Origin: an uncultured delta proteobacterium
GTDB taxonomy: Bacteria > Desulfobacterota > Desulfobacteria > Desulfobacterales > B30-G6
Assembly: GCA_963823335.1 (NCBI GenBank)
Contig: CAWGLD010000004.1
Location: 1 to 64,000, forward strand
DNA length: 64,000 bases
Direction of reading: 5' to 3'
This document shows, one piece after another, positions 1-47,307 of the stretch. Under the pieces are notes generated by a model, which ran no database searches, had not been told where the DNA came from, and saw nothing but the letters and a program-made list of their open reading frames with translations. Numbering within the stretch: the stretch's first letter is position 1; the number at the start of each line of letters is the position of its first letter. Both the position numbers and the translations under genes were made by a program.

Positions 1-110
1 GAATAATAACCACCTTGTCAATGGGGTGAAGATAAAAACAGTTTTGGTTTTGTTGATAGTATTATTACTACCAATATACTCCAATACCTTTCATTCTTGC
101 GTTTTCCAAT

Positions 111-1865
111 TTGATGATATCTTTGTCAAATAGGAATATGATTTACGAAAAAAGACAAAATTTTCTCACGGTTGCGCTGGCGGTGCTCATGACTGTTTAT
201 ATTATTTCCATCATCATTCTTGCCTCGGTCCCACCGGTGAGCCGTGACGCGCTGACCCACCATCTCGCAGTTCCCAAGCTTTGGATAAAGCATGGCGGTA
301 TTTATGAAACGCCAGATCTGACGTTTTCATACTACCCCATGAACCTGGATCTTCTCTACGTCATCCCGTTATATTTTGGAAACGACATCATCCCGAAATA
401 TATCCACTTTGCCTTTGCTCTTGCAACTGCATGGCTGATTTTCAAATATTTATGTGGCAAATTTAATCGATGGTATGCTTTTGCAGGCGCTTTATTTTTT
501 CTGACAACACCGGTCATTGTGAAGCTTTCAATTACAGCGTATGTCGATCTGGGTTTGATTTTTTTTACCACATTGTCGCTGCTGTATTTGATCAAGTGGG
601 GGGACAGCGGGTTCCGCATAACGTACCTGATTGTGTCTGCGGTTTCATGCGGTTTGGCCATCGGCACAAAATACAATGGCTTGATTTCAATATTTCTTTT
701 AGCCTTTATACCGCCATATGTATATCTCAAATGGTCCAAAACAAACCCGAACAAAAAAACCATTCGCTATCAATTAAAAGCATTGGGGTACGGCATACTT
801 TTTGTCTGCATTGCATGCATGGTATATCTGCCATGGATGGCAAGAAATCATATCTGGACCGGAAATCCCTTATACCCGCTTTTCAACAAACAAATGCAAG
901 CACCGCACCCAATTGACGATAAGACGCACAACCGCTGGTCGGGTATCATCCGGTTCTGTTGAAGATGAACAACCTAAACTCCCACCGAAGTCACCGGAAA
1001 TCGACAGCCACTTTATTGTGCGAAAGCTGGTATACGGGGAGTCCTGGCGGGAAACCGCTTCGATACCGCTCAGGGTTTTTTTTCAAGGCCGGGATGACAA
1101 TCCAAAATTCTTCGATGGGAAACTCAATCCATTCCTGCTGCTGCTGCCCTTGTTTGTTTTTTATCGATCGAATAAATGTTCGGTACGGTTCAACAGGGAA
1201 ATAATGTTATTGGGTCTCTTTTCGATACTGTATTTGCTGTTTGTTTTTTTTCGTATCGATATGCGCATCCGTTGGATCTCACCCATTATTCCACCACTTG
1301 TTATCCTTTCGGTTATCGGGTTGTTTCGAATGAAACAGATTTGCGATGCGTACACCAAAACAACAGAGGTCAATCTGTTCAAGGGGTTCTTCTGGCTCAT
1401 TCTGACCGCCATGTTTATGTTGAACATCGTCTATATGGTTAATCTTTACAAAGTGGTCGATCCACTTAGCTACCTGTCCGGTGGCGTACCAGTCGTGACG
1501 CCTATATCCAACGATTCCTCCCGGAGTACAGTGTTCTAACGTTTGCGAACCAGAACACACCACAAGATTCGGTAATTTTATGTCTCTTTCTCGGAAACAG
1601 GGGATATTACAGCGACAGGAAAATGAATTTTGATTATGGTCTTTTTGAACTTGCAACCCGAAACTCAGCATCGGCCAAAGATGTTGCCGATTTGCTGCAG
1701 GCCGGCGGAATTACCCACCTGACGGTTCGGCACGACTTGTTCAAAAAGTGGCAGCGCGATAATTTTACGCAATCAGAAAAAAAGGTGATTTCTTTGTTTT
1801 TTGATACGTATACGGAAACGCTTTATTCCAAAAACGGTTATACGCTATTGAAGATCAAATTATAA
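111..1865 (+). pseudogene. GT-C/PMT (ArnT-like, family 39-type) membrane glycosyltransferase split into three frames (pseudogene or sequencing indels)
   Basis: ORF 111-962 has many TM helices plus DALTHHL...YYP, YVDLG and GTKY motifs. ORF 802-1539 continues the membrane protein (RWISP). A third frame opens near 1486 (RTSRDAYIQRFLPEY...LGNRGYYSDRK) and runs into ORF 1623-1865. Frame changes fall near 900-950 and near 1483. Confidence 0.7.
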
Positions 1866-30112: not shown

Positions 30113-30578
30113 ATCTTTTGTTTTCGGTCCTGCCTTGGAATCCGATTACGGGTCAAGTTTAGAAATACTCTACAAAATACTTAAGGGAAAATACCCGATG
30201 GTGCCAAAACTTGGTTTCGAGATTGTAGACGTCAGGGATGTTGCCGCTCTACACCGCTTGGCATACGAATCTCCCGATGCTATAGGAAGACGCTTTCTCT
30301 GTTCAAGTGGGTTTCGGTGGTTGAAGGACATGTCTATATTTATTCGTGAAAAATTTCCTGAACATCGGGAAAAGATATCTGTCAGGGAAATGCCGAATTT
30401 ACTTTTCAAAATCATTTCATTTTTCGATGGTAGTGCTGCCAGGTTTGTACCCTATTTGGAAATTAAAAGAGAGATGGATATCAGCCCTGCACGGGAGGTG
30501 CTTGGATGGAATCCCAGGTCGCCAGAAGAATCTATTAAATCAGGTGCTCGTAGCCTTATTGATTTTGGGATTGTATAG
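30110..30578 (+). pseudogene. C-terminal fragment of an extended SDR (dihydroflavonol/aldehyde reductase-like)
   Basis: VFGP, VDVRDVAALHRLA, GRRFLCS, AREVLGWNPRS are present; the N-terminal Rossmann GxxGxxG region is absent. Confidence 0.75.
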
Positions 30579-30654
30579 GCAAAATATAATTTAGATTTCC
30601 AAAATGGGAAGGATCCAAAACAATACTATCTATAGCTTTAACCGGGAGGAAAGT

Positions 30655-31191
30655 ATGACATCACTCACAGACCGAATGATTCGGGCAGCAAAACTGGATA
30701 CAAGCCTTTATGAAGAGGTCGAAGCGGATAAAGAGGCCATGGGACAAGCCATGACAGTTGTTATTCTTTCCAGTGCTGCAGCAGGAATCGGAACTATCGG
30801 TGCAGCAGGGCTGAAGGGTCTTATTTTCGGAACCATAGCTGCTCTTGCAGGCTGGTTTATCTGGGCGTATTTGACATATGCTATTGGGACAAAGTTATTA
30901 GCTGAGCCACAAACAAAAGCAGACTATGGGGAATTACTGCGTACTATCGGTTTCTCCAGCTCTCCTGGAGTGCTTCGTATTTTTAGTATCATTCCCATGC
31001 TTGGGAACATCCTAAATTTGATTTGCGGTATCTGGATGCTGGTAGCGATGGTCATTGCCGTAAGACAAGCACTTGACTATAAAAGTACTTGGCGGTCAGT
31101 TGCTGTTTGCCTTATTGGTTTTATTGTTCAACTAATTGTTTTTGGTTTGTTTTTTCGGTTGGTAGGGGGATTCGGACCTTCACAACCATAG
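30655..31191 (+). CDS. YIP1-family membrane protein
   Basis: RMIRAAKLD..LYEEVEAD, about 5 TM helices, AVRQALD; GGGAGGA RBS. Confidence 0.8.
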   Translation: MTSLTDRMIRAAKLDTSLYEEVEADKEAMGQAMTVVILSSAAAGIGTIGAAGLKGLIFGTIAALAGWFIWAYLTYAIGTKLLAEPQTKADYGELLRTIGFSSSPGVLRIFSIIPMLGNILNLICGIWMLVAMVIAVRQALDYKSTWRSVAVCLIGFIVQLIVFGLFFRLVGGFGPSQP

Positions 31192-31249
31192 TTTATATTT
31201 TAGGCTTTTCTCCCGATTTGTTGTAGAAATGCTGTTGGTGGAAGCCTTG

Positions 31250-31283
31250 TCGAAATCGGGATCGCTATCGGGATCGGGATCGA
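31250..31283 (+). repeat. Left arm of a 34-bp inverted repeat built from ATCGGG hexamers
   Basis: TCGAAATCGGGATCGCTATCGGGATCGGGATCGA; 30/34 identical to the reverse complement of 31785-31818. Confidence 0.92.
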
Positions 31284-31284
31284 G

Positions 31285-31680
31285 ATGGTATTAGGTCATG
31301 AAAAATTAGACGTTTACCGCCTTTCAATCGGCTATGTCGCATGGGTTTATGAAAAGTGTGCCAGGCTGAGAGGCGTCCATCGTTCAGCAAGAGACCAGTG
31401 GCTTCGAGCCAGCCAGTCGATTGCGCTTAATATTGCAGAAGGCAACGGTAAGACAGCGAAGGCTGATCGGCGGCGATATTTCGAAATAGCGCGTGGGTCG
31501 GCATTGGAGTGTGCCGCAATCCAAGATGTCTTGGTAGTCGGAAAAGGTTTGGATAAAGTAGAAAGCCGGCAGCGCAAAGGTGAATTGGACCGCATTGCTG
31601 CAATGCTTAGTCGATTGGGCGGCAGGGGTTATAGCGTAAAGGAAGGGTTCGGGGAATACGGCTATACTGAACGGCAATAG
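31285..31680 (+). CDS. Four-helix-bundle protein (23S rRNA IVS-protein / bAvd-like family)
   Basis: HEKLDVY, DQWLRASQSIALNIAEGNGK, RYFEIARGSALECAA, AMLSRL. Confidence 0.92.
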   Translation: MVLGHEKLDVYRLSIGYVAWVYEKCARLRGVHRSARDQWLRASQSIALNIAEGNGKTAKADRRRYFEIARGSALECAAIQDVLVVGKGLDKVESRQRKGELDRIAAMLSRLGGRGYSVKEGFGEYGYTERQ

Positions 31681-31783
31681 CGAGCGCATTCCCCGTAGCT
31701 TGCTGCGGGGTTAGCGAGCGAATCAAATAGATAAAATCCTTACCGCGAAGATTCCCTGCAGCTTGCTGCAGGGTACTCTTCAA
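31667..31783 (-). mobile_element. Family B palindromic miniature element inserted in the 3' end of the four-helix-bundle gene
   Basis: Reverse complement reads TTGAAG..CCCTGCAGCAAGCTGCAGGG..GATTCGCTCGCTAACCCCGCAGCAAGCTACGGGGAATGCGCTCGCTATTGCCGTTCAG, matching 32293-32435. Confidence 0.85.
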
Positions 31784-31784
31784 T

Positions 31785-31818
31785 TCGATCCCGATCCCGA
31801 TCCCGATAGCGATTTCGA
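31785..31818 (-). repeat. Right arm of the 34-bp hexamer inverted repeat
   Basis: TCGATCCCGATCCCGATCCCGATAGCGATTTCGA. Confidence 0.92.
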
Positions 31819-31863
31819 TAAGATATAGCCCGAGCTGTATTTCTCTTGACCCGAATTTTGGAG

Positions 31864-31896
31864 CCCTTTCCTCCAACTAAATTGGGAGAAGATCCA
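31864..31896 (+). repeat. Isolated right end of family A element
   Basis: CCCTTTCCTCCAACTAAATTGGGAGAAGATCCA matches the right ends at 33144 and 38836. Confidence 0.8.
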
Positions 31897-31998
31897 TATT
31901 TTATTCCCGCATTATAATAGATATCTCCTAATTTCCGAGATCTCAATAGAATGCGATACAGCTCCAACAAAACAAGGTTAACAGACCCCTAAATATTT

Positions 31999-32082
31999 CC
32001 GGTGTGCGAAAATAATCATCACCGACCACTTTTTGTATTGATGGGGATCTTCGCTATACGTTGGGCATGACCAGATGGTATC
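31999..32082 (+). repeat. Duplicated motif of about 85 bp, copy 2
   Basis: See 29033-29116. Confidence 0.8.
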
Positions 32083-32292
32083 GGTAATAATTTTCTTGAC
32101 ATTGCCCGGAGCCCATAATATTTAAATTTTAATGTCGTGCTCATCTGAAGCTCAATCTCACCTCCAATGCGACCTACATCTTCTAGCTCTAATTTCGCTA
32201 ATTTAATTCTGCATCGTACCGCACTTTCTGAACCTCTCCGCTAAAGTAGATAACGGTTTCTCGCATTTTTTTACCTAATAATCAGGTGAGGA

Positions 32293-32435
32293 TTGAAGAA
32301 CCTCGCAGCAAGCTACGAGGAATGTTCTGCTGTGCGACAGTGCTTCGCAGCGACCGTAAGGAATTCTGTCTAATTTAGATTCGCTCGCTAACCCCGCAGT
32401 AGGCTACGGGGAATGCGCTCGCTGTTGCGGTTCAA
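32293..32435 (+). mobile_element. Family B palindromic miniature element (full, 143 bp)
   Basis: TTGAA...TTCAA ends; two related hairpins CCTCGCAGCAAGCTACGAGG and CCCCGCAGTAGGCTACGGGG; near-identical to 45739-45905. Confidence 0.85.
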
Positions 32436-32465
32436 TAAACCGTAAACGAGAGGTGAATAGACAAT

Positions 32466-32723
32466 ATGAAGACATTAGACGAACGCAAAAAAGAGTTTGC
32501 TATCACTTCTGATAATCTGACAGCGTATTGGAGAGAAGGTAAAAGAGATCTAAAACGATTCAATAAACTTGTGAAGCTGTATAAGATTGCCGGTGATAAT
32601 TTAACCAACCACCCAGACTATGAAGAGCCTATGCTCCGGCTGGCAAGCGAGCATTATTATAGGCGATACTACTGGCTGGCGGGTATTTACCGGCACAATC
32701 ATACCGAGAAGCATGTCAGATGA
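32466..32723 (+). CDS. Hypothetical protein (85 aa)
   Basis: GAGGTG RBS upstream; no recognised family. Confidence 0.5.
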   Translation: MKTLDERKKEFAITSDNLTAYWREGKRDLKRFNKLVKLYKIAGDNLTNHPDYEEPMLRLASEHYYRRYYWLAGIYRHNHTEKHVR

Positions 32724-32810
32724 TTCTTTAGGTACTACGACCGCCGTGTATCTATAAAGACCATACACGCATCACACCACGCTTTAGCCTGCGTATGAAT
32801 TTAATTATAA

Positions 32811-33144
32811 TGGATCATCTCCCAAAGAGTTGATCCAAATTAAGGATTCAAGGATTCCAGGGGCCCAGGGGTCGAGTGAGATGAAGTGAGGTGCCAGCTA
32901 AATGCTTAAGAATTATAAAGAGTTAAATGTCTGGAAAAAAGCGTATAAACTTTGTTTGGATAAACGATGATATCCGGTGATTTGGATTATATGAACAAGG
33001 AAAAGCTTCAGGGTTTAAGAGAGGCGCTTGGGAATGTAGAGAGAATGCTAAAAGCCATGATCACATCCCTGGAAAACAAACACTTGAATCCTTGAATCCT
33101 GGATTCCTTGAACCCTTTCTCCCAACTTATTGGGAGAAGATCCA
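32811..33144 (+). mobile_element. Family A element copy 1 (334 bp): TIR, octamer arms and an internally deleted four-helix-bundle gene
   Basis: TIR TGGATCATCTCCCAA / TTGGGAGAAGATCCA (14/15); inverted AGGATTCA-type arrays at about 32843-32878 and 33081-33116. Confidence 0.88.
32902..33095 (+). pseudogene. Internally deleted four-helix-bundle gene
   Basis: MLKNYKELNVWKKAYKLCLD (family N-terminus) is joined out of frame to ISGDLDY...NVERMLKAMITSLENKHLNP* (family C-terminus); the core SNIAEG helices are missing. Confidence 0.8.
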
Positions 33145-33166
33145 TATATTTTAACGAGGTGAGTTA

Positions 33167-33400
33167 ATGGATGCCTTGGCAATTGCAATTGTCTTATCAT
33201 TAGTGGGTCTGCTGCTTCTTCTGTTTTTAGATATGCGAAATGTACTCTTCCGTAGAATAAATATAAAGCGTTCAAGAAGAGAACGACGTAAAAGTTTTAT
33301 TGCTTCAAAAAACCGCATGAGGAGATCTGGTAATGATCGCAGACAGTCAGCGCAAAGCCTAAGTTATAGTAACGAAAAATTGAAATTCAGAGGTCTATAG
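33167..33400 (+). CDS. Small membrane-anchored Arg-rich protein
   Basis: GAGGTG RBS; N-terminal TM helix; RRERRK...RRSGNDRR. Confidence 0.6.
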   Translation: MDALAIAIVLSLVGLLLLLFLDMRNVLFRRINIKRSRRERRKSFIASKNRMRRSGNDRRQSAQSLSYSNEKLKFRGL

Positions 33401-33408
33401 TGGTTGAA

Positions 33409-33536
33409 ATGCGGAACGGCAAAGAGCGCAGGCTCATAAAGAAAAGAGATGTGGCCGTACTTCTTCATACAGTGGCCCAGAAAGAAGGGCTATCAAGTAC
33501 CGCAGAAGTGACAAAGACAGGAGGTTAAAAGATTAG
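33409..33536 (+). pseudogene. Probable frameshifted Arg-rich micro-protein with a YSGPERR motif
   Basis: MRNGKERR from 33409; the frame from 33435 reads HKEKRCGRTSSYSGPERRAIKYRRSDKDRRLKD*. Confidence 0.45.
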
Positions 33537-33829
33537 GATTTCACATCATCATAGGGGTGCTTATTGTTGGGACATAAGAGGTACCCGTGATAGGATGATC
33601 TCTCTAAATATTTTAGTTTTGCCCATGGGCTGTGCTTGTCGCAGCCCTATTTATTTTGTTCATAAATTGACATGCCCAGCAGAATATGATCATTTAAAAT
33701 AAATACCCCACAAGTATTAACCTGATTCTATTCAGAAATATTATTACATAAAATTCTTGTTTCAGCCGACACTACTATATCTGATTATCAAGTGCCATGG
33801 ATAAAACACCTCAAAAGGAAGGCGATGAT

Positions 33830-34790
33830 ATGAGTAGGACAACGAAAAAACTTCTTGTAATAGTTCCTGTAATCATTCTTTTGGTCTTAATTTCCTGTTA
33901 TTTTTTATTCCCAGGAGCTATCTTTAAAACTCTGGTAAAAATGGAAAGAAATGCGGCTGGTCTTGAACAAAGAAGCATAGAAGTGGGCAATCTGCACATC
34001 GAATATTTAGAAGGTGGCAAAGGGGAAGTGTTGGTATTACTGCACGGATTTGGTGGAAATAAAGACAATTGGACACGAGTGGCAAAGTATCTCACACCTC
34101 ATTTTAGGGTAATTGCCCCTGATCTTCCAGGTTTTGGAGAAAGTTCAAGTGATATGGGGGCTTCATACACCTATGCCGCACAAGTTGACCGACTGCATGA
34201 ATTTATTAGGGCGTTAGAGTTGGGTGTATTCCATCTTGCAGGCAATTCGATGGGAGGTAATATTGCTGGCAATTATACAGCAAAATTTAATGATGAAATT
34301 AGTAGCTTGTGGCTTATTGCTACAGGTGGGATTATTTCATCACAACCAAGTGAACTGAGCCAAAGATTAAAATCAGGCGCCCGGAATCCTTTTGGTCGTG
34401 GAAAATACGGAAGAATACGATCAGCTATTAGATTTCATTTTTGTTAATATACCTCCTATTCCTGGCGCAATAAAACGGTACCTCACTCAGGAAGCCATAG
34501 ATCATCGTCCGCTTAATGAAATAATCTTTAAGCAAATTACATCTACTGATACTGATAATTTTGTTCCTCTCGAAGTGCTGCTTAAGAATGCGCAAACCAA
34601 AACCTTAATTTTATGGGGGGATAATGATAGAGTACTACATATGTCTGGAGCTAAAATTCTCGAATCAGTCATGCCAAATGCAAAAAGTGTTATCATGAAA
34701 AATATTGGTCATGTTCCTATGGTGGAAAAACCTCAAGAATCTGCGAATATTTTTTTGAACTTTATCGGGAAAAAGGACTCGCAAGTCTAA
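33830..34790 (+). pseudogene. Alpha/beta hydrolase (lipase/esterase) with one frameshift near 34390
   Basis: LLHGFGG, PDLPGFG and GNSMGG in the first frame; WGDND and GHVPM in the second; removing one T from CCTTTTGG restores NPLVVENTEEY. Confidence 0.85.
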
Positions 34791-34998
34791 GTTGTCTTGA
34801 ATTGAACTTGTGATGTGGATAGTTGGTACGATCCTACAGATGTATCAGTACTTTTGCTATACCCACCAAGATAGGGCGTTTGTCATAATAACCTTCCGAT
34901 AGCGGCGGTTTTTTGAGCCCGCAAGGGAGTATATATGACATCTAATATGGCATATGGTTCCGTAAACGTCTAGTTTTTTTGTTGATGAAATCAACACC

Positions 34999-35097
34999 TA
35001 GCGGTTGTCACCATCTGAATAATTTCACCTGCACGTGCCCAAAACCTGCCTGATCGTAAATTAGACCAAACGGAATATATTTTAATGACAACCGCTA
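34999..35097. repeat. 99-bp segment bounded by a perfect 12-bp inverted repeat (MITE-like)
   Basis: TAGCGGTTGTCA ... TGACAACCGCTA. Confidence 0.55.
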
Positions 35098-35225
35098 TAA
35101 ACTCATCCATATTTCCATACAATGTGACCTTTTATACATAAACCATTAACAATGGAAATGAATATCATTCCATGAAACTTACTATTATAACTATAAATAA
35201 TTGTATTTAAAAATGTCATTTATGA

Positions 35226-35241
35226 TGGCATTATTATTGCT
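35226..35241 (+). promoter_or_regulatory. Candidate sigma-54 (-24/-12) promoter
   Basis: TGGCATTATTATTGCT (GG-N10-GC) about 55 nt upstream of the PilZ gene, with an AT-rich upstream tract. Confidence 0.6.
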
Positions 35242-35293
35242 TATTAATAGGATAACTCACAATTGATGTGCTTAACATATTTAGGATAGGAGA

Positions 35294-35581
35294 GTGCATA
35301 AAATGGAAGCAGCATATGACTTTGATGGATATAGAAGAATAAATGAAAGGAAAAACTACCATAAGGAAGTATCATTTTCCACAGAATCGATGATTTTTCC
35401 TGCAACGATAAAAAATCTTAGCATGGGGGGCGCGCTTGTTGGCACCACAAGTATACCTAAAATAAAAACAGGGATAAAAATAATTATTACTATTCCTTTT
35501 GCAAACAAACCAGGCTGTATGAAAAGAAAAGCAATAGTCTTGTGGGCCGAAAATGATCAATTTGGCATTCAGTTTATTTGA
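35294..35581 (+). CDS. Stand-alone PilZ-domain protein
   Basis: RRINER (RxxxR), NLSMGG (N/DxSxxG), terminal FGIQF. Confidence 0.85.
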   Translation: MHKMEAAYDFDGYRRINERKNYHKEVSFSTESMIFPATIKNLSMGGALVGTTSIPKIKTGIKIIITIPFANKPGCMKRKAIVLWAENDQFGIQFI

Positions 35582-35748
35582 AAAATGCAAGAAAATATTC
35601 TGATTCTATTGTTACCAATGTATAACCAACCGGGGTGTCACTCATGAGATTGGCAGGCATAGATTGGCTGATTTTATCCAAGAAATAACCCGGCATGTGC
35701 GATTTAATGGTTAGATGGAACTTATCAGACCAATAGGAGAATAATTAA

Positions 35749-35889
35749 ATGTATTTTTACGATTTTCAATGTCAAGGATGTGGTTGGGACATGGAGAGAT
35801 TGGTATCTCGCTATGTGATCGAGATTAAATGCCCGATGTGCGGCTACATGTCACAGAAACAGATGGCAGCACCCAAAAAGGAAAATTAA
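35749..35889 (+). CDS. 46-aa zinc-ribbon protein (FmdB-like)
   Basis: AGGAGA RBS; MYFYDFQCQGCG...IKCPMCG...; too short for the supplied ORF track. Confidence 0.75.
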   Translation: MYFYDFQCQGCGWDMERLVSRYVIEIKCPMCGYMSQKQMAAPKKEN

Positions 35890-36291
35890 AAGGCCAATAA
35901 CGTAAGATTGTATTTACAATTCTCAAATCTGCGATACCTCCAAAACCTGTGATATTTATTATTCACATATCATGAAACGCCATTTTCCGGTTAGGCTTCC
36001 TACGCCCCGTGAGGCGATGTCTCCCCGGCATCATGGCCGGGTGCCCACACTTATGAACGCTTCGGGCCGTTCATTATTCACCACGGATTTCAATTTCAAA
36101 GAGCACAATGTTAATGAATCGCTTATCCCAAAAACAAAAATCATCAAAAAAATCGGAGCCAGATTATATATGTTACCAATGGGGGGTAGGCATTTGGCCC
36201 CCGGTAGTGGGCTATCAAAATATTTTTTTTATTGTTCTCTTGTCTTAACAGCATTGGTGATATCGGACGATATAAATAACGATTGGAGAAA

Positions 36292-37215
36292 CTAAAAACG
36301 TGAGATGTGAGACGTAAGACGTGAGACGGGGAGCAGAGGGTATGTCGTCAAAACATCAATTTGATGAATCAGGTAATCAGAAAAAAAAGCGTCAGACCAA
36401 AGACTCAACTTATCTTGATGCGCTACATTCCTCAAGAATGGCTCAACGTCTTTTTTGGCCAGATCGAAATCAATCTCCTTGATCTTGGCAGACAGCAGTT
36501 CAAGCAGTTTTTCTCTGGTCAACGCCTCGGAGGTATCAATATGACCTGTTTGCACCATCTTGTTTTTAAGAAATCCCAGATCACATGGGGTATTGTTTTT
36601 CACAAACCAAACTAAATCATACCAATCCCGGCCCTTGATGTTGGTTCTCACGGTTCGGCACAATAGTGCATGCATTTTGCCGGCAAGCAGACAGGGCAGT
36701 GTCATGGTTTTAATGGTAAACGGAATCGGATTCAGATGATATTTGGTGTCACTGGCAAACCCTGTGACCGGATCTTGATCAATTTCCAATTTGATCTTCA
36801 TCACGGCATTTTTATGGGTTTTCAGATTTGAATCAATTTTTAATAAATGGATCAGTGTATTGGCTTTTATAAAAGCCGAGTCTACCGTGCTTTTATTCTT
36901 TTTGTTGATTTCTTCTGTGGAAACCTCAAAACCCCACAACGCCAGCTCTGATTTTACCGCTTCAAGATACTTTTTAAGGTTGAAGTCCTTTTCCGGCTGA
37001 ATTAGAGAAAAATCTACATCCTCGGAGAAACGATCCAACTTGTGAAGAATTCGTAATGCGCTTCCCCCGTAAAAAACAGCTTTTTCATAAAATTTTGAAC
37101 GCCATAAACCAAGCAGAATGATCTCCTGTATGATCTCTTTCAACGCATTTTCATGATCATGAATTGTGTGCAATTCATACCTGCGGAGCATTTGATCAAC
37201 CTTATCATCAAACAT
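36292..37215 (-). CDS. abiEii: AbiEii-family nucleotidyltransferase toxin (type IV TA)
   Basis: FYGGSALR...RFSEDVDF, KLEID, AGKMHA, KGRDWYD. Confidence 0.9.
   Translation of the reverse strand: MFDDKVDQMLRRYELHTIHDHENALKEIIQEIILLGLWRSKFYEKAVFYGGSALRILHKLDRFSEDVDFSLIQPEKDFNLKKYLEAVKSELALWGFEVSTEEINKKNKSTVDSAFIKANTLIHLLKIDSNLKTHKNAVMKIKLEIDQDPVTGFASDTKYHLNPIPFTIKTMTLPCLLAGKMHALLCRTVRTNIKGRDWYDLVWFVKNNTPCDLGFLKNKMVQTGHIDTSEALTREKLLELLSAKIKEIDFDLAKKDVEPFLRNVAHQDKLSLWSDAFFSDYLIHQIDVLTTYPLLPVSRLTSHISRF
36298..36332 (+). repeat. Heptamer tandem array (ACGTGAG) x5 overlapping the 3' end of abiEii
   Basis: acgtgag atgtgag acgtaag acgtgag acgggga. Confidence 0.8.
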
Positions 37216-37825
37216 GGCCTTCCTTTACGCAGTTGACCAGCAGCTTTATGCCCTGCCTGCCATATACGGCTGAGATTTCTTCCAACAATGATATTTCAAG
37301 ATTCCTGCCGCCACTGTAATCCAATCGCATCAATTCCAGGTATTCCTTCATTTCATTTTTTGTTGAAATATGAGGCTGTGCCGCTGTGATATCGCATAAC
37401 GCTTTTTCAGGGGAAGCAATCAGGATATTTTTATGATCCCCTGCATCCTCAAGCCGAATACCAATATTGAACGCTGCCTTTGGACAATACAAATAAGAAA
37501 ATCGGCCCACCTGAGTCTCAAACTGCTTTTTTCTTTTTGCCGTCATGCTGATGATGAGCTCAACACGCTCTGGTATCATGTCCCAGAATGCCAATGCAGT
37601 TTGACCCGTGATGTAAGACGGTCCATAAATCAGATTTGCCAAGACAAACTTGTTGTATGGCTTGTTATACACCTTGCCCAGTACGTAAAGCCCTTTTTTA
37701 ACCCTTAAAATATCTTTATTCTGGATGAGACTTCGGATCTTGTCTCTGGGTTTTTTGTAATCCCTTAACGCGTGCAGCAGCAAATTGTAATCAAATTCCG
37801 CAGGTAGTTGTATTAAGTTATTCAT
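37208..37825 (-). CDS. abiEi: AbiEi-family antitoxin
   Basis: RVKKGLY, PSYIT...ALAFWDMIPE, IASPEKALCD; overlaps the toxin gene. Confidence 0.88.
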   Translation of the reverse strand: MNNLIQLPAEFDYNLLLHALRDYKKPRDKIRSLIQNKDILRVKKGLYVLGKVYNKPYNKFVLANLIYGPSYITGQTALAFWDMIPERVELIISMTAKRKKQFETQVGRFSYLYCPKAAFNIGIRLEDAGDHKNILIASPEKALCDITAAQPHISTKNEMKEYLELMRLDYSGGRNLEISLLEEISAVYGRQGIKLLVNCVKEGHV

Positions 37826-37832
37826 AGTTTTG

Positions 37833-37868
37833 CAACCAGTATGTCTAATTTTTTGGACATATTGGTTG
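37833..37868. promoter_or_regulatory. Inverted repeat, candidate AbiEi operator
   Basis: CAACCAGTATGTCTAA ... TTGGACATATTGGTTG (14/16), just upstream of the abiEi start. Confidence 0.65.
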
Positions 37869-37917
37869 ACTATAAGGTAATATGAGTGAATTTGTCAATG
37901 AAAAAGTTCAGGTCGTC

Positions 37918-37967
37918 TATGCCCGGTGGTGTGAGAGAGGGGGGTCGTGAGGCCTCCCCTACTCGAT
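37918..37967 (+). mobile_element. Group II intron 3' remnant (3' strand of domain V plus domain VI)
   Basis: TATGCCCGGTGGTGTGAGAGAGGGGGGTCGTGAGGCCTCCCCTACTCGAT follows the class C-like ...CGGTGGTGTGAGAG...CCTACTCGAT 3' consensus; the 5' half of DV and the RT are absent. Confidence 0.75.
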
Positions 37968-38081
37968 ACTGGATTGTGCAGCTTGATATATGGATGGTAA
38001 CCTGTTTTTTTCATCTTGATCATCTCCAACAACCATGGCAGTATCTCAACAGCACCAATCCTCTTCCAAGGAGGTCCCACC

Positions 38082-38315
38082 ATGTCCAGCCACGCATCCA
38101 ATGCTAAGCTACTCTTCACCAATTGTATCAATCTCAACTCAAGAAGCTGCCGGTATACAAAGAAACCTGAAACTATCCTGTCCCTGTTCAGCGATCCAGA
38201 AAATTTCGCGGTCAGTGATCAGAAGATTCACGAACTGAACGACATATGTTCCCAATGTGATTCATACCATATGCCTGACAAATTAAAAGATTTGGATCAT
38301 CTCCCAAAGAGTTGA
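38082..38315 (+). CDS. Small Cys-containing hypothetical protein; C-terminus supplied by element A copy 2
   Basis: AAGGAGGT RBS; CINLNSRSC and CSQC; last codons and stop fall inside the TIR. Confidence 0.55.
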   Translation: MSSHASNAKLLFTNCINLNSRSCRYTKKPETILSLFSDPENFAVSDQKIHELNDICSQCDSYHMPDKLKDLDHLPKS

Positions 38316-38555
38316 TCCAAATTAAGGATTCTAGGATTCCAGGAGTCCAGGGTTCGAGTGAGATGAAGTGAGGCATCAGCTAAATGCTTAAGAAGTATAA
38401 AGAGCTAAAAGTCTGGAAAACAAACACTTGAATCCTTGAATCCTGGACTCCTTGTACCCTTTCTCCCAACTAACCCTCATGTCCGGGGCGGTCACAACGA
38501 AGGATGAAAATATTGATGAGAATGATGGCTATTTTCATATAAATTGGGAGAAGAT
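38293..38555 (+). mobile_element. Family A element copy 2 (deleted form with a nested 66-bp insertion)
   Basis: Same TIR and arms as 32811; lacks 138 bp between two CTGGAAAA; insert 38474-38539 is flanked by TAA. Confidence 0.88.
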
Positions 38556-38639
38556 TAAAAGATTTGCAGTGACCGTTGCGATTCGTGCTATTTATACTTG
38601 CCTTATCTGCTTCCTGTAACTATATTGGATGATTAATTT

Positions 38640-38836
38640 TGGATCATCTCCCAAGGAGTTGATCCAAATTAAGGATTCAAGGATTCCAGGGGTCCAGGGC
38701 TCGAGTGAGATGAAGTGAGGCATCAGCTAAATGCTTAAGAATTATAAAGAGTTAAAAGTCTGGAAAACAAACACTTGAATCCTTGAATCCTTGACTCCTT
38801 GAACCCTTTCTCCCAATCTAATTGGGAGAAGATCCA
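38640..38836 (+). mobile_element. Family A element copy 3 (197 bp, deleted form)
   Basis: TGGATCATCTCCCAA...TTGGGAGAAGATCCA; same CTGGAAAA junction as copy 2. Confidence 0.9.
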
Positions 38837-38862
38837 TAACTTTTTACAGAGGAGGATAGACA

Positions 38863-39219
38863 ATGAAGGAGTTTGATGTAGCGCTGAAAGCAGTAGCAGA
38901 AGGTCTGAAAACCATAGCGCAGGGCATGGAGAAGATAGCTGAGAAATTGGAGGAAAGTGTTCCCGATAAACAGGCCAAGGCTCAGCCTGCGCGTAAACCT
39001 GCCAAAAAACCAAAGAAAGTACCGGCAAAGAAAGCTGTGAAAAAAACTGCGGCAGATGCAGTGTTGGCGATAGTCAACAGATCAAAAAAGGGTGTCAATG
39101 GTGCGACTCTTGCGGAAAAGACAGGCTACGACAGCAAAAAAGTTGCCAATATTGTTTTCAAATTGAGGAAGCAGGGCAAGATTAAGAGCGTTGGTCGGGG
39201 TGTTTACGCGAAGGCGTAA
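38863..39219 (+). CDS. Small basic DNA-binding protein (coiled coil, PAKK linker, winged helix)
   Basis: GAGGAGG RBS; PARKPAKKPKKVPAKK; LAEKTG...L..QGKIKSVGRGVY. Confidence 0.75.
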   Translation: MKEFDVALKAVAEGLKTIAQGMEKIAEKLEESVPDKQAKAQPARKPAKKPKKVPAKKAVKKTAADAVLAIVNRSKKGVNGATLAEKTGYDSKKVANIVFKLRKQGKIKSVGRGVYAKA

Positions 39220-39271
39220 ATAGTGGAAAATTCCGACGCTTTCTCTAACCATTCGCACGGATGGCAGTTGC

Positions 39272-39300
39272 TTGACAAAAAGGTCATTTTTATGTAGCAT
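39272..39300 (+). promoter_or_regulatory. Candidate sigma-70 promoter
   Basis: TTGACA-N17-TAGCAT upstream of the PilZ gene. Confidence 0.5.
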
Positions 39301-39436
39301 AAATGTTCCACTGTCTGGAATAATGCTTTTTAGGACACAAGGTAACTTGTTGCGGTTTTCATTAGAAGTTATCTCAAAAGAGTTTTTTGGCCCAGTTGAT
39401 GACTTCTAATAAGATGCCTTATAGCCCGGTGAAACG

Positions 39437-39823
39437 ATGATTATCCATTTTTTAAAAAGACTTCTCACCCTTAGATTCCGTAAACGGCCGCGATTCAACG
39501 CACGGGACGGTGTGTATGTCATCATGGAAAACTCGGCCAGATCAAACCAGATCCACAACATCAGTATGGGAGGGCTGGCTTTTGATTATGAAGATACCGG
39601 TTATCTCATCGGACAAAGAGCCTATGAATTAAAAGTTATGAGTGACCAGAATCTAAAACTCGATCGCATACCCTTCAAGAGGGTTTCTGATTTTTCGGTG
39701 GGCGAAGTGTTGTATCCCTACCGGAAAATAAAGCGACAGTCTGTACAGTTTGGAGGATTGACGAGCTCCCAGAAAGTGCAACTCAAGCATTTCATCAAAA
39801 ACAACACCATCGGCAGGGCCTGA
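39437..39823 (+). CDS. Stand-alone PilZ-domain protein
   Basis: RKRPR, NISMGG, VQFGGLT..Q..L..FI. Confidence 0.85.
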   Translation: MIIHFLKRLLTLRFRKRPRFNARDGVYVIMENSARSNQIHNISMGGLAFDYEDTGYLIGQRAYELKVMSDQNLKLDRIPFKRVSDFSVGEVLYPYRKIKRQSVQFGGLTSSQKVQLKHFIKNNTIGRA

Positions 39824-47068: not shown

Positions 47069-47307
47069 TGGATCATCTCCAGAAGAGTTAATCCAAACTG
47101 AGTCTCCACCCGCGGAGCGGGCGGGCTCAGGATGCCCCCTCGAAGGGGGCTATAATATCCAATATCGACTATCGATTACATGAATTTCGAAGTGATGGTT
47201 CTCAGCTTATGGTACAAAAGAAGATAGAGCGCAGCGATACCACACGTCAATATTCTACATTCCTTGTTCGATATTCATTATTCTCTTTTATTTTCACCCG
47301 ATCGGTA
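47069..47307 (+). repeat. Composite repeat: family A left end (47069-47097) followed by family C copy 3 (47104-47307)
   Basis: TGGATCATCTCCAGAAGAGTTAATCCAAA, then CTCCACCCG...GCCCCCTCGAAGGGGGC...AAGATAGAGCGCAGCGATAC. Confidence 0.85.

Follow-up and report, generated by a model that had tools for sequence, protein, structure and literature searches.

A probable ISL3-type mobile insertion cassette with a four-helix-bundle gene and its MITE-like derivatives in a genome of the Desulfobacterales

An example of a mobile insertion cassette (MIC) is MIC231 of IS231, found in Bacillus cereus. PMC4133298 defines both MICs and MITEs that descend from insertion sequences (IS); it also gives ISPpu12 as a member of the ISL3 family with passenger genes. 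According to PMC4990558, S23p open reading frames (ORFs) are found in intervening sequences of 23S rRNA in Leptospira and Coxiella burnetii; these sequences are regarded there as a selfish element, whose origin and mobility have been open since the early 1990s. The same paper cites work on S23p of Xanthomonas, which forms pentamers. Avd, the accessory protein of diversity-generating retroelements, is reported to belong to the same Pfam family (PMC10053308).

The repeats described here, termed family A, were analysed in a window of 64,000 nucleotides, the whole stretch of DNA under study, and throughout the assembly to which it belongs. Like MICs and MITEs, family A has IS-type inverted ends, no transposase gene, many copies and shorter derivatives devoid of the gene; as in MICs, the full form carries a passenger gene and the target duplication has the length seen with the parental IS. 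It departs from known MICs and MITEs in its ISL3-type ends and in a PF05635 four-helix-bundle passenger gene that brings along inverted octamer arrays, and no cognate transposase was found in the assembly. The PF05635 ORF is enclosed by complementary termini able to form a long stem, as in the 23S rRNA intervening sequences. In contrast to these, family A copies are located at the ends of protein-coding genes or in the spaces separating them and not in a 23S helix (9, 25 or 45), each of their arms repeats a single octamer in tandem, and they are bounded by IS ends with target duplications. The protein shares with Avd a four-helix-bundle fold family with pentameric relatives, but no reverse transcriptase was detected among the eight neighbouring ORFs covered by the scan.

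Copies, ends and target duplications

Three copies of family A are present in the window (Table 1), in surroundings that are protein-coding or intergenic. An alignment unites them over their whole length, and the nested layout proposed in a preliminary description of this DNA was located with its parts in all three; the N- and C-terminal remnant peptides of copy 1 had also been read correctly. Copies 2 and 3 have one gap of 138 columns in common relative to copy 1, in which CTGGAAAA is found at both borders. The right end of copy 2, previously placed at 38555, carries the terminal bases ATTA in place of ATCC, and the loop of its hairpin contains a 70-bp insert (38472-38541) that is single-copy genome-wide. 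The insertion point of this copy lies three codons ahead of the stop of ORF 38016-38315, and the identity of its flanks extends to 12 nt (ATTAAAAGATTT) because the right end is ATTA and not ATCC. Copy 3 precedes ORF 38863-39219, 27 nt separating it from the start of this ORF. Its predicted RNA fold of -70.8 kcal/mol (z = -5.4, 200 shuffles) contains the arm stem and both end hairpins, in agreement with the local folding of the ends described earlier. Flanking 8-mers are identical at six of eight positions for copy 3 and at three of eight for copy 1. Promoter and terminator predictions in 31100-39300 were at the level of shuffled sequences, none being inside the elements. Rfam searches revealed no rRNA in 30500-39500 and no family at or near the gathering score in the window region and eight related loci.

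Table 1. Family A copies and related features in the window
Feature	Position	Strand	Description
Sister element	31203..31895	+	693 bp; ISL3-type ends as in family A; REP-like insert
Sister element gene	31285-31680		intact 131-aa PF05635 gene inside (GGGATC)n hexamer arms
Family A copy 1	32812..33143	+	332 bp; deletion class 131-312 of the 489-bp full element
Copy 1, left end	32812-32842		
Copy 1, left octamer arm	32843-32876		
Copy 1, ORF start remnant	from 32902		
Copy 1, C-terminal remnant ORF	32967-33095		
Copy 1, right arm	33083-33117		
Copy 1, right end	33118-33143		
Copy 2, target duplication AAAGATTT	38286..38293	.	repeated at 38558-38565; 8/8
Family A copy 2	38294..38557	+	264 bp; deletion class 103-414; parts as in copy 1
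Family A copy 3	38641..38835	+	195 bp; deletion class 103-414, junction as in copy 2; parts as in copy 1
Family A solitary left-end fragment	47069..47105	+	about 37 bp; end and local hairpin only, then unrelated sequence

A BLAST search of the whole assembly with copies 1 and 3 revealed 71 clusters, 29 of them of at least 150 bp and representing 30 copies, so that the count called for earlier amounts to 30 such copies plus many fragments. Copies of this size are present on contigs C1, C2, C4 and C6-C8 and additional fragments on C3, C5 and C9, a spread over about eight contigs. With up to two mismatches, the 15-mer end occurs 66 times in the genome, compared with about eight occurrences expected by chance according to a hand estimate. 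The element ends read GGATC(A/T)TCTCCCAA ... TTGGGAGA(A/T)GATCC. GG and CC are the true limits and the outer T/A belongs to the flank; the terminal inverted repeat (TIR), originally given as 15 bp, is therefore 14 bp long. Tabulating the flanks in this register revealed the target duplication looked for: 8-mers were identical at all eight positions in nine of 23 two-ended copies and at seven positions in three more. While 12 of 23 real pairs reached 7-8 matches, only 8 of 506 permuted left/right flank pairs did so, and registers shifted by 1-4 nt left 0-1 of the 23 copies with matching flanks. Most duplicated bases are A or T (160/184). For six of the 23 copies, copy 1 included, the flanks matched at four positions or fewer, and these insertions are individually unsupported by duplication.

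The search for a full-length version yielded one intact copy, C2:127685-128173, of 489 bp with a 123-aa PF05635 gene (E = 4e-39). It is the only one of the 30 copies with an intact gene; one further full-length copy is interrupted by a TAG stop. Apart from the four-helix-bundle gene or its remnants, no ORFs were found within family A copies, and a DDE_Tnp_ISL3 transposase ORF is absent from every one of them. Since no copy encodes a transposase, mobility has to be provided in trans, as had been proposed. Two lone ends had been reported as well. The one at 47069 is a true solitary left-end fragment; the one at 31864 belongs to the sister element as its right end. Four full copies of this element with 99.6-100% identity exist in the genome, all flanked by perfect 8-bp duplications (ATATTTTA for the copy in the window).

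Public contigs from four metagenome runs were compared with 37900-39300. None spans an empty site or all of this region, and their summed depth is 170-700 in the repeat parts compared with 3-8 in the unique flanks. Presence/absence variation of copies 2 or 3 was not apparent in these contigs, a result of little weight because they break at the repeat. At orthologous sites of two genomes of the same family the repeats alone match, the unique flanks being too diverged.

Deletion classes

At least six deletion classes were recognised, each at two to five different loci, and six more junctions occur once. The classes are 131-312 (4-5 copies, 74-93% identity within the class), 103-414 (4 copies, 89-94%), 100-291 (4-5 copies, 93.5-95%), 256-379 (3 copies, 98-99%), 138-358 (2 copies, 89%) and 139-384 (2 copies, 98%). 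Copy 1 shows 82-93% identity to the rest of its class. The junction of copies 2 and 3 was also detected at C7:335105 and C7:11592 with unlike flanks; together with the five other classes, this bears out the view that copying went on after loss of the gene. The shared 138-bp junction at CTGGAAAA was correctly recognised from the start. Its reading as a further, sequential loss is possible, but the 103-414 deletion could equally have occurred in one step from a full-length ancestor within that subfamily. Short direct repeats border at least two of the deletions, CTGGAAAA in the class of copies 2 and 3 and ATAGAG in class 256-379, and the deletions presumably arose by slippage or illegitimate recombination.

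In every multi-copy class both arms are retained. If deletions were random between the ends, the chance of this would be about 1% by a rough hand estimate, and the arms may therefore contribute to the success of the elements. The suggestion that ends or arms suffice in cis holds for the ends. It does not hold for the arms, which are almost wholly gone in three family A copies of 54-79 bp. From the IS-type ends and the 8-bp duplications it follows that the cis-acting parts are the ends, not the arms.

Match to ISL3 elements and rival explanations

Elements with an ISL3 DDE domain (PF01610) were detected in 31 of the 151 genomes examined from this order. Among 30 fetched PF01610 loci, four contain a complete IS of 1334-1356 bp bounded by GGTTCTTCTCC(C/A/G)A(A/T)TT..., and one such end is present at five more. 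The complete IS share the end-internal palindrome of family A (TTCTCCAA..TTGGAGAA), and perfect 8-bp AT-rich duplications surround three of them (CAATTTAA, TTAATCTT, GAAAATTT), resembling those around family A. The first 14-16 bp of their ends (L030 in G067, 1334 bp; L027 in G040; L028; L039) are identical or nearly identical to those of family A, and the L030 variant GGTTCTTCTCCCAA is the end of the family A copy at C1:412354. In total, about 25-30 bp of each end match, internal palindrome included, and PF01610 is the sole long ORF in the end-matching elements. In genome G040, L027 occurs together with four full-length copies of family A whose ends match. Unlike ISL3 elements, family A is without a PF01610 gene and is thus a derivative rather than a member; its usual left end also differs in the second palindrome half, which reads TTGATCC instead of TTGGAGAA. 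Because its ends match complete ISL3 elements, family A can be described as an ISL3-derived MIC with MITE-like derivatives, and the special mechanism implied by the preliminary description gives way to IS ends and duplications of a familiar kind, an outcome which that description had itself named as a refutation.

A transposase bounded by the same TIR, which had been suggested as a target for searches, thus exists in genomes of the same order, but none was detected in this assembly. The PF01610 profile gave no match here or in the remaining two genomes of this family, and the best tblastn hit of two ISL3 transposases from related genomes to the assembly had E = 1.1; the assembly consists of 11 contigs and is 93.9% complete, and the transposase could lie in the missing part. 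A profile search for the four-helix-bundle gene in the 30 ISL3 loci (L019-L048) gave no match. Among the ISL3 and family A matches listed in 151 genomes, none were within a few kb of each other on inspection by eye.

It is very probable that two ISL3-family IS ends of about 30 bp form the framework of family A, a non-autonomous DNA transposon family which started from a gene-bearing founder, is mobilised in trans and is decaying into MITEs. The founder form would have been a MIC. An ISL3 transposase from elsewhere, the presumed mover, would bind the ends, insert the element into AT-rich targets and duplicate 8 bp. Internal deletions would then have taken away parts of the gene, and the deletion forms would have multiplied as MITEs in bursts of different age, each of them continuing to multiply because transposition would require the ends alone.

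The ends of the GGATCATCTCCCAA type could instead derive from another family duplicating 8 bp (e.g. IS1595, IS6, IS256 or IS66), or a resident IS110 or IS5/DUF772 transposase could move the elements. An all-against-all comparison of 2966 ORFs of at least 200 aa, with Pfam searches of the 18 repeated ones, revealed an IS110-type pair and a DUF772 pair as the only transposase-like ORFs among these, which together with the absence of the cognate ISL3 enzyme would fit such an origin. However, the long match of both ends to elements with PF01610 as their only long ORF makes it improbable. IS110-type elements are not known to have such inverted ends or 8-bp duplications, and the duplications made by IS5-type elements usually measure 3-4 bp.

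Still less likely is a mechanism of the cassette's own, in which the inverted octamer arrays would be cis sites for the four-helix-bundle protein or a host enzyme, the ISL3-like ends being incidental. Gene and arms do occur without ISL3 ends in the relatives L059, L060 and L065, and such ends were found near only seven of the best 80 relatives in public genomes. One orthologous intergenic site in three congeneric genomes is empty (G090), filled (G143) or decayed (G004), all without ISL3 ends, and the retention of both arms in all multi-copy deletion classes would also be in accordance with this mechanism. In family A, however, the duplicated 8-mers adjoin the GG...CC ends and lie some 30 bp beyond the arms, which the shortest copies have lost; a gene intact in a single copy, and its 123-aa product without a known nuclease or recombinase domain, likewise speak against it.

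Local duplication, recombination or gene conversion, or single-strand elements with hairpin ends, such as REP/RAYT or IS200/IS605, are hardly credible: copies 2 and 3 are merely 83 bp apart, both ends form local hairpins and the genome has eight Y1_Tnp (PF01797) matches, but the two copies have unlike flanks, as the preliminary description had held, and separate duplications (8/8 and 6/8), the family is dispersed over the contigs, inverted termini with 8-bp duplications are present, and the Y1_Tnp genes are unlinked to family A copies. Y1-transposase elements (IS200/IS605) are not known to have terminal inverted repeats with 8-bp duplications.

The cargo gene and its arms

The idea of a general architecture of gene plus inverted unit arms is strongly supported. 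Inverted tandem arrays of a 7-8-nt unit flank 54 of 72 relatives of the four-helix-bundle gene from many phyla, compared with 1 of 129 control windows. The arrays are polar: on the coding strand, the upstream one is G-rich (RGG) and the downstream one C-rich. No description of such polar arrays around PF05635 genes was found in the literature searched. The best sequence match among solved structures is PDB 2GSC, and the closest solved relatives are uncharacterised. RNA-specific pairing of the arms was not apparent, mismatches of the G-U type (73) and the A-C type (78) showing no asymmetry. Position-specific pairing of unit variants was not detected either by the score sum (713 compared with 692 in shuffled and 704 in reversed order) or locus by locus (mean z 0.30; z >2 in 2 of 38 informative loci), both comparisons having limited power. 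The arrays resemble iterated recognition sites and not a stem paired position by position; the putative ligand is possibly the pentameric four-helix-bundle protein, or the arrays possibly act as a G-quadruplex or Shine-Dalgarno-like array.

Two unrelated cassette lineages in this genome appear to have been captured between ISL3 ends. As a tentative proposal, more doubtful than the origin of family A itself, PF05635 genes across phyla could form one class of selfish cassettes with inverted, lineage-specific arrays of about four 7-8-nt units. Family A, carried by ISL3 ends, and the intervening sequences of rRNA would be two special cases of this class, and capture by ISL3 would mean that the cassette has an affinity for DNA able to form hairpins and was not caught by chance.

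As an element, family A is of an ordinary kind; its cargo is unusual. Its behaviour as a transposon, an IS-derived cassette decaying into MITEs, is textbook, and its value lies in the cargo. Here an S23p-type gene is found within a vehicle that is defined and testable; one copy is intact, the deletions form a dated series and relatives have a matching transposase. The natural deletion mutants demonstrate that spread does not require the gene, and the survey of relatives adds that polar arrays of 7-8-nt units form arms around PF05635 genes in most lineages.

Family A copies in the window and the genome

The three stretches of the window assigned to family A, elements with octamer arms and a PF05635 four-helix-bundle gene or its remnants, could be aligned end to end, in agreement with the preliminary description. 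Every window copy consists of a left end of about 30 bp with a local hairpin inside, a left arm in which the octamer AAGGRKTC is repeated about four times, a short leader with GAGG 10 nt ahead of the ATG, remnants of the four-helix-bundle ORF, a right arm with the octamer array in inverted orientation that contains the stop codon of the ORF, and a right end of about 26 bp with its own 9-bp hairpin. RNA folding of copy 3 yielded exactly three structures, the two end hairpins and the arm stem (-70.8 kcal/mol, z = -5.4). A gap of 138 columns relative to copy 1 is common to copies 2 and 3, and in copy 1 it is bordered on both sides by CTGGAAAA. The AbiEii-type toxin gene located between copies 1 and 2 is paired with an overlapping upstream ORF of 205 aa without Pfam match.

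For the assembly (4.37 Mb, 11 contigs; the window is C4:1-64000), whose nearest public relatives are Desulfobacterales metagenome-assembled genomes, Blast searches with copies 1 and 3 produced 102 and 114 HSPs, respectively, which were merged into 71 clusters. Twenty-nine clusters of at least 150 bp represent 30 copies, and the remaining ones correspond to half elements, to solitary ends, or to remnants of arms alone. Family A is real, as had been recognized from the sequence alone, and many-membered. The sole full-length intact copy specifies a 123-aa protein (PF05635, E = 4e-39). The best solved relatives of the family A protein are the uncharacterised XCC0516 from Xanthomonas (2GSC, E = 2e-30) and 2RLD. 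In the second full-length copy the left half is duplicated: a complete palindromic ISL3-type end precedes a left arm with leader, after which come another left arm and the complete ORF with a TAG stop, the whole being flanked by the perfect duplication TTATTTTT. In public runs X1-X4 (sediment or aquatic metagenomes, four studies), repeat parts within 38276-38840 reached summed depths of about 170-700, compared to 3-8 for the unique flanks in contigs of these runs. Family A is abundant in these communities.

Coordinates of family A copies and of features in or near them
Feature	Position	Remarks
Copy 1	window 32812-33143	flanking 8-mers match at only 3/8, so that insertion is not individually verifiable
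Copy 2	window 38294-38557
Insert in copy 2	window 38472-38541	70 bp, in right-end hairpin loop; unique in the genome
Copy 3	window 38641-38835	flanking 8-mers match at 6/8
Full-length intact copy	C2:127685-128173	489 bp
Composite full-length copy	C1:412354-412912
Copy with extra insert	C6:151417-151850	about 120 bp with several GC-rich hairpins, within the ORF remnant; the insert is a different small repeat
Hexamer-arm element	window 31203-31895	693 bp
Hexamer-arm element without REP-like insert	C7:100288-100873
REP-like repeat	window 31665-31780 and 32297-32437	inverted copies
REP-like repeat	C1:792966-793401
REP-like repeat	C7:11592-11923
AbiEii-type nucleotidyltransferase toxin gene	window 36292-37825, minus strand	PF08843, E = 7.6e-28

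ISL3-type ends and target duplications

Boundaries were set at GG...CC, and 23 copies of family A with both ends were considered. The flanking 8-mers are identical in nine of them, differ by one base in three, and match at 6/8 positions in three more. Matches of at least 7/8 were obtained in 8/506 permuted left/right flank pairs and in 0-1 of 23 copies when the register was shifted by 1-4 nt. Duplicated bases are mostly A or T (160/184). Family A transposes, and its boundaries are the GG...CC ends. Copy 2 is flanked on both sides by AAAGATTT. As ATTA takes the place of ATCC at its right end, the identity extends to 12 nt, which reflects two substitutions at the terminus or, alternatively, a duplication of 10 bp and loss of the terminal CC. 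When copy 2 is removed along with one repeat, an ORF with the end ...KDLQ* is regained, which places the insertion point three codons ahead of the stop.

An ISL3 element with matching ends would be bounded by GG(A/T)TC(A/T)TCTCCCAA. No ISL3 transposase was found in this assembly (PF01610, no match; best tblastn E value 1.1), and PF01610 is present in 31/151 sampled genomes of the same order. Thirty loci were fetched, four of which harbor complete ISL3 elements of 1334-1356 bp with the transposase as the only long ORF, and one ISL3-type end is present at five further loci. The inverted ends of the complete elements, GGTTCTTCTCC(C/A/G)A(A/T)TTAGT(T)GGAG..., are those of family A including the internal palindrome; the local fold noticed earlier at the family A ends is real, and it is this palindrome. 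Perfect AT-rich 8-bp duplications surround three of the four elements. One genome of the order, G040, contains one such ISL3 element as well as four full copies of family A whose ends match. Family A is therefore an ISL3-derived mobile insertion cassette with MITE-like derivatives (for definitions see PMC4133298, in which an ISL3 member carrying passenger genes is also mentioned). The special mechanism of mobility originally implied is not supported, a match of the ends to a known IS having been named beforehand as its refutation; the mobility of family A has an ordinary explanation.

The same kind of ends delimits the hexamer-arm element, whose right end had been taken for a lone end (31864). 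Four copies of this element with 99.6-100% identity and perfect 8-bp duplications are present in the genome, which implies very recent activity of an ISL3 transposase in the lineage.

The majority of the 104 Blast rows obtained with the hexamer-arm element belong to a REP-like repeat family with palindromic units of the CCCCGTAGCTTGCTGCGGGG type, which is represented by dozens of copies in both other genomes belonging to the taxonomic family of this organism. Insertions of this repeat occur in two family A copies, just ahead of the ATG, and in the hexamer-arm element. A REP/RAYT-type system is possible, because the genome has eight Y1_Tnp (PF01797) matches.

Deletion forms and the arms

At least 12 distinct internal deletion junctions were mapped onto the 489-bp full element, in which the ORF extends from 70 to 441. 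The classes differ in age, which suggests that various deletion forms multiplied in successive bursts.

Multi-copy deletion classes of family A
Junction	Members	Loci	Within-class identity
131-312	copy 1 and 3-4 others	4-5	74-93%
103-414	copies 2 and 3, C7:335105, C7:11592	4	89-94%
100-291		4-5	93.5-95%
256-379		3	98-99%
138-358		2	89%
139-384		2	98%

The 103-414 junction lies within an 8-bp repeat (CTGGAAAA in copy-1-like sequence), and the 256-379 junction within ATAGAG. The 197-bp form may be derived from a copy-1-type element, as first proposed, or equally from a full-length one. In three copies of 54-79 bp, little is left beyond the two ends. Both arms are kept in every multi-copy class. 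If deletions were placed at random, the chance of this would be about 1% (estimated roughly by hand from the junctions), which weakly suggests that the arms are of some use.

Mismatches between the arms showed no excess of G-U over A-C (73 versus 78), and the order of unit variants is not mirrored beyond shuffled order (713 versus 692; mean z 0.30). That both arms consist of one unit, arrayed in opposite orientations, therefore accounts for their complementarity. The data are as compatible with a register-tolerant stem as with iterated binding sites. For rRNA intervening sequences that carry an S23p ORF, complementary termini cleaved by RNase III are described (Coxiella; PMC4990558), and according to that source the origin and mobility of these sequences remain unclear. 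Neither tandem-unit arms nor a link to ISL3 is described in the full-text literature searched under the family's names and accession, a body of text outside of which most subscription journals lie.

The four-helix-bundle cassette beyond family A

Twenty-two PF05635 matches were detected in this genome. Nearly all full-length genes are flanked by inverted short-unit arrays, the unit differing from gene to gene, and most arrayed genes are without ISL3 ends. A scan with one genome per species revealed 595 relatives of the family A protein, the best 80 of which (L068-L147; Desulfobacterota, Nitrospirota, Bacteroidota, Planctomycetota, cyanobacteria, and other phyla) were examined. Among the 72 loci with both flanks present, the gene is enclosed by a significant inverted repeat in 54, compared to 1/129 windows shifted by 900 bp. 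Arm units recur every 7 nt (28 loci) or 8 nt (25 loci), and at one locus every 9 nt. Arms are polar, the upstream arm containing at least three RGG triplets on the coding strand in 42/54 loci and the complement in none of the 54. Upstream arms usually comprise about four units with the RGG core (AGGCACT, TAGGGTA, AGGGAAC, or AAGGTTC, for example), a spacing that would be compatible with G-quadruplex formation or with a series of Shine-Dalgarno-like sites. The last arm unit of the intact family A gene provides the only AGGA ahead of its ATG.

ISL3-like ends were detected near the gene in only seven of the best 80 loci, all in delta-proteobacterial genomes, and capture by the ISL3 vehicle is therefore lineage-specific. 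An orthologous intergenic site with the same two flanking genes is empty in one of three congeneric genomes (L150 in G090), filled with a full cassette without ISL3 ends in the second (L148/L059 in G143), and decayed in the third, with the left arm and the first approximately 50 nt of the ORF only (L149 in G004). The cassette therefore spreads, or once spread, by another route too. The cargo is the general thing, and the flanking arrays deserve study in their own right.
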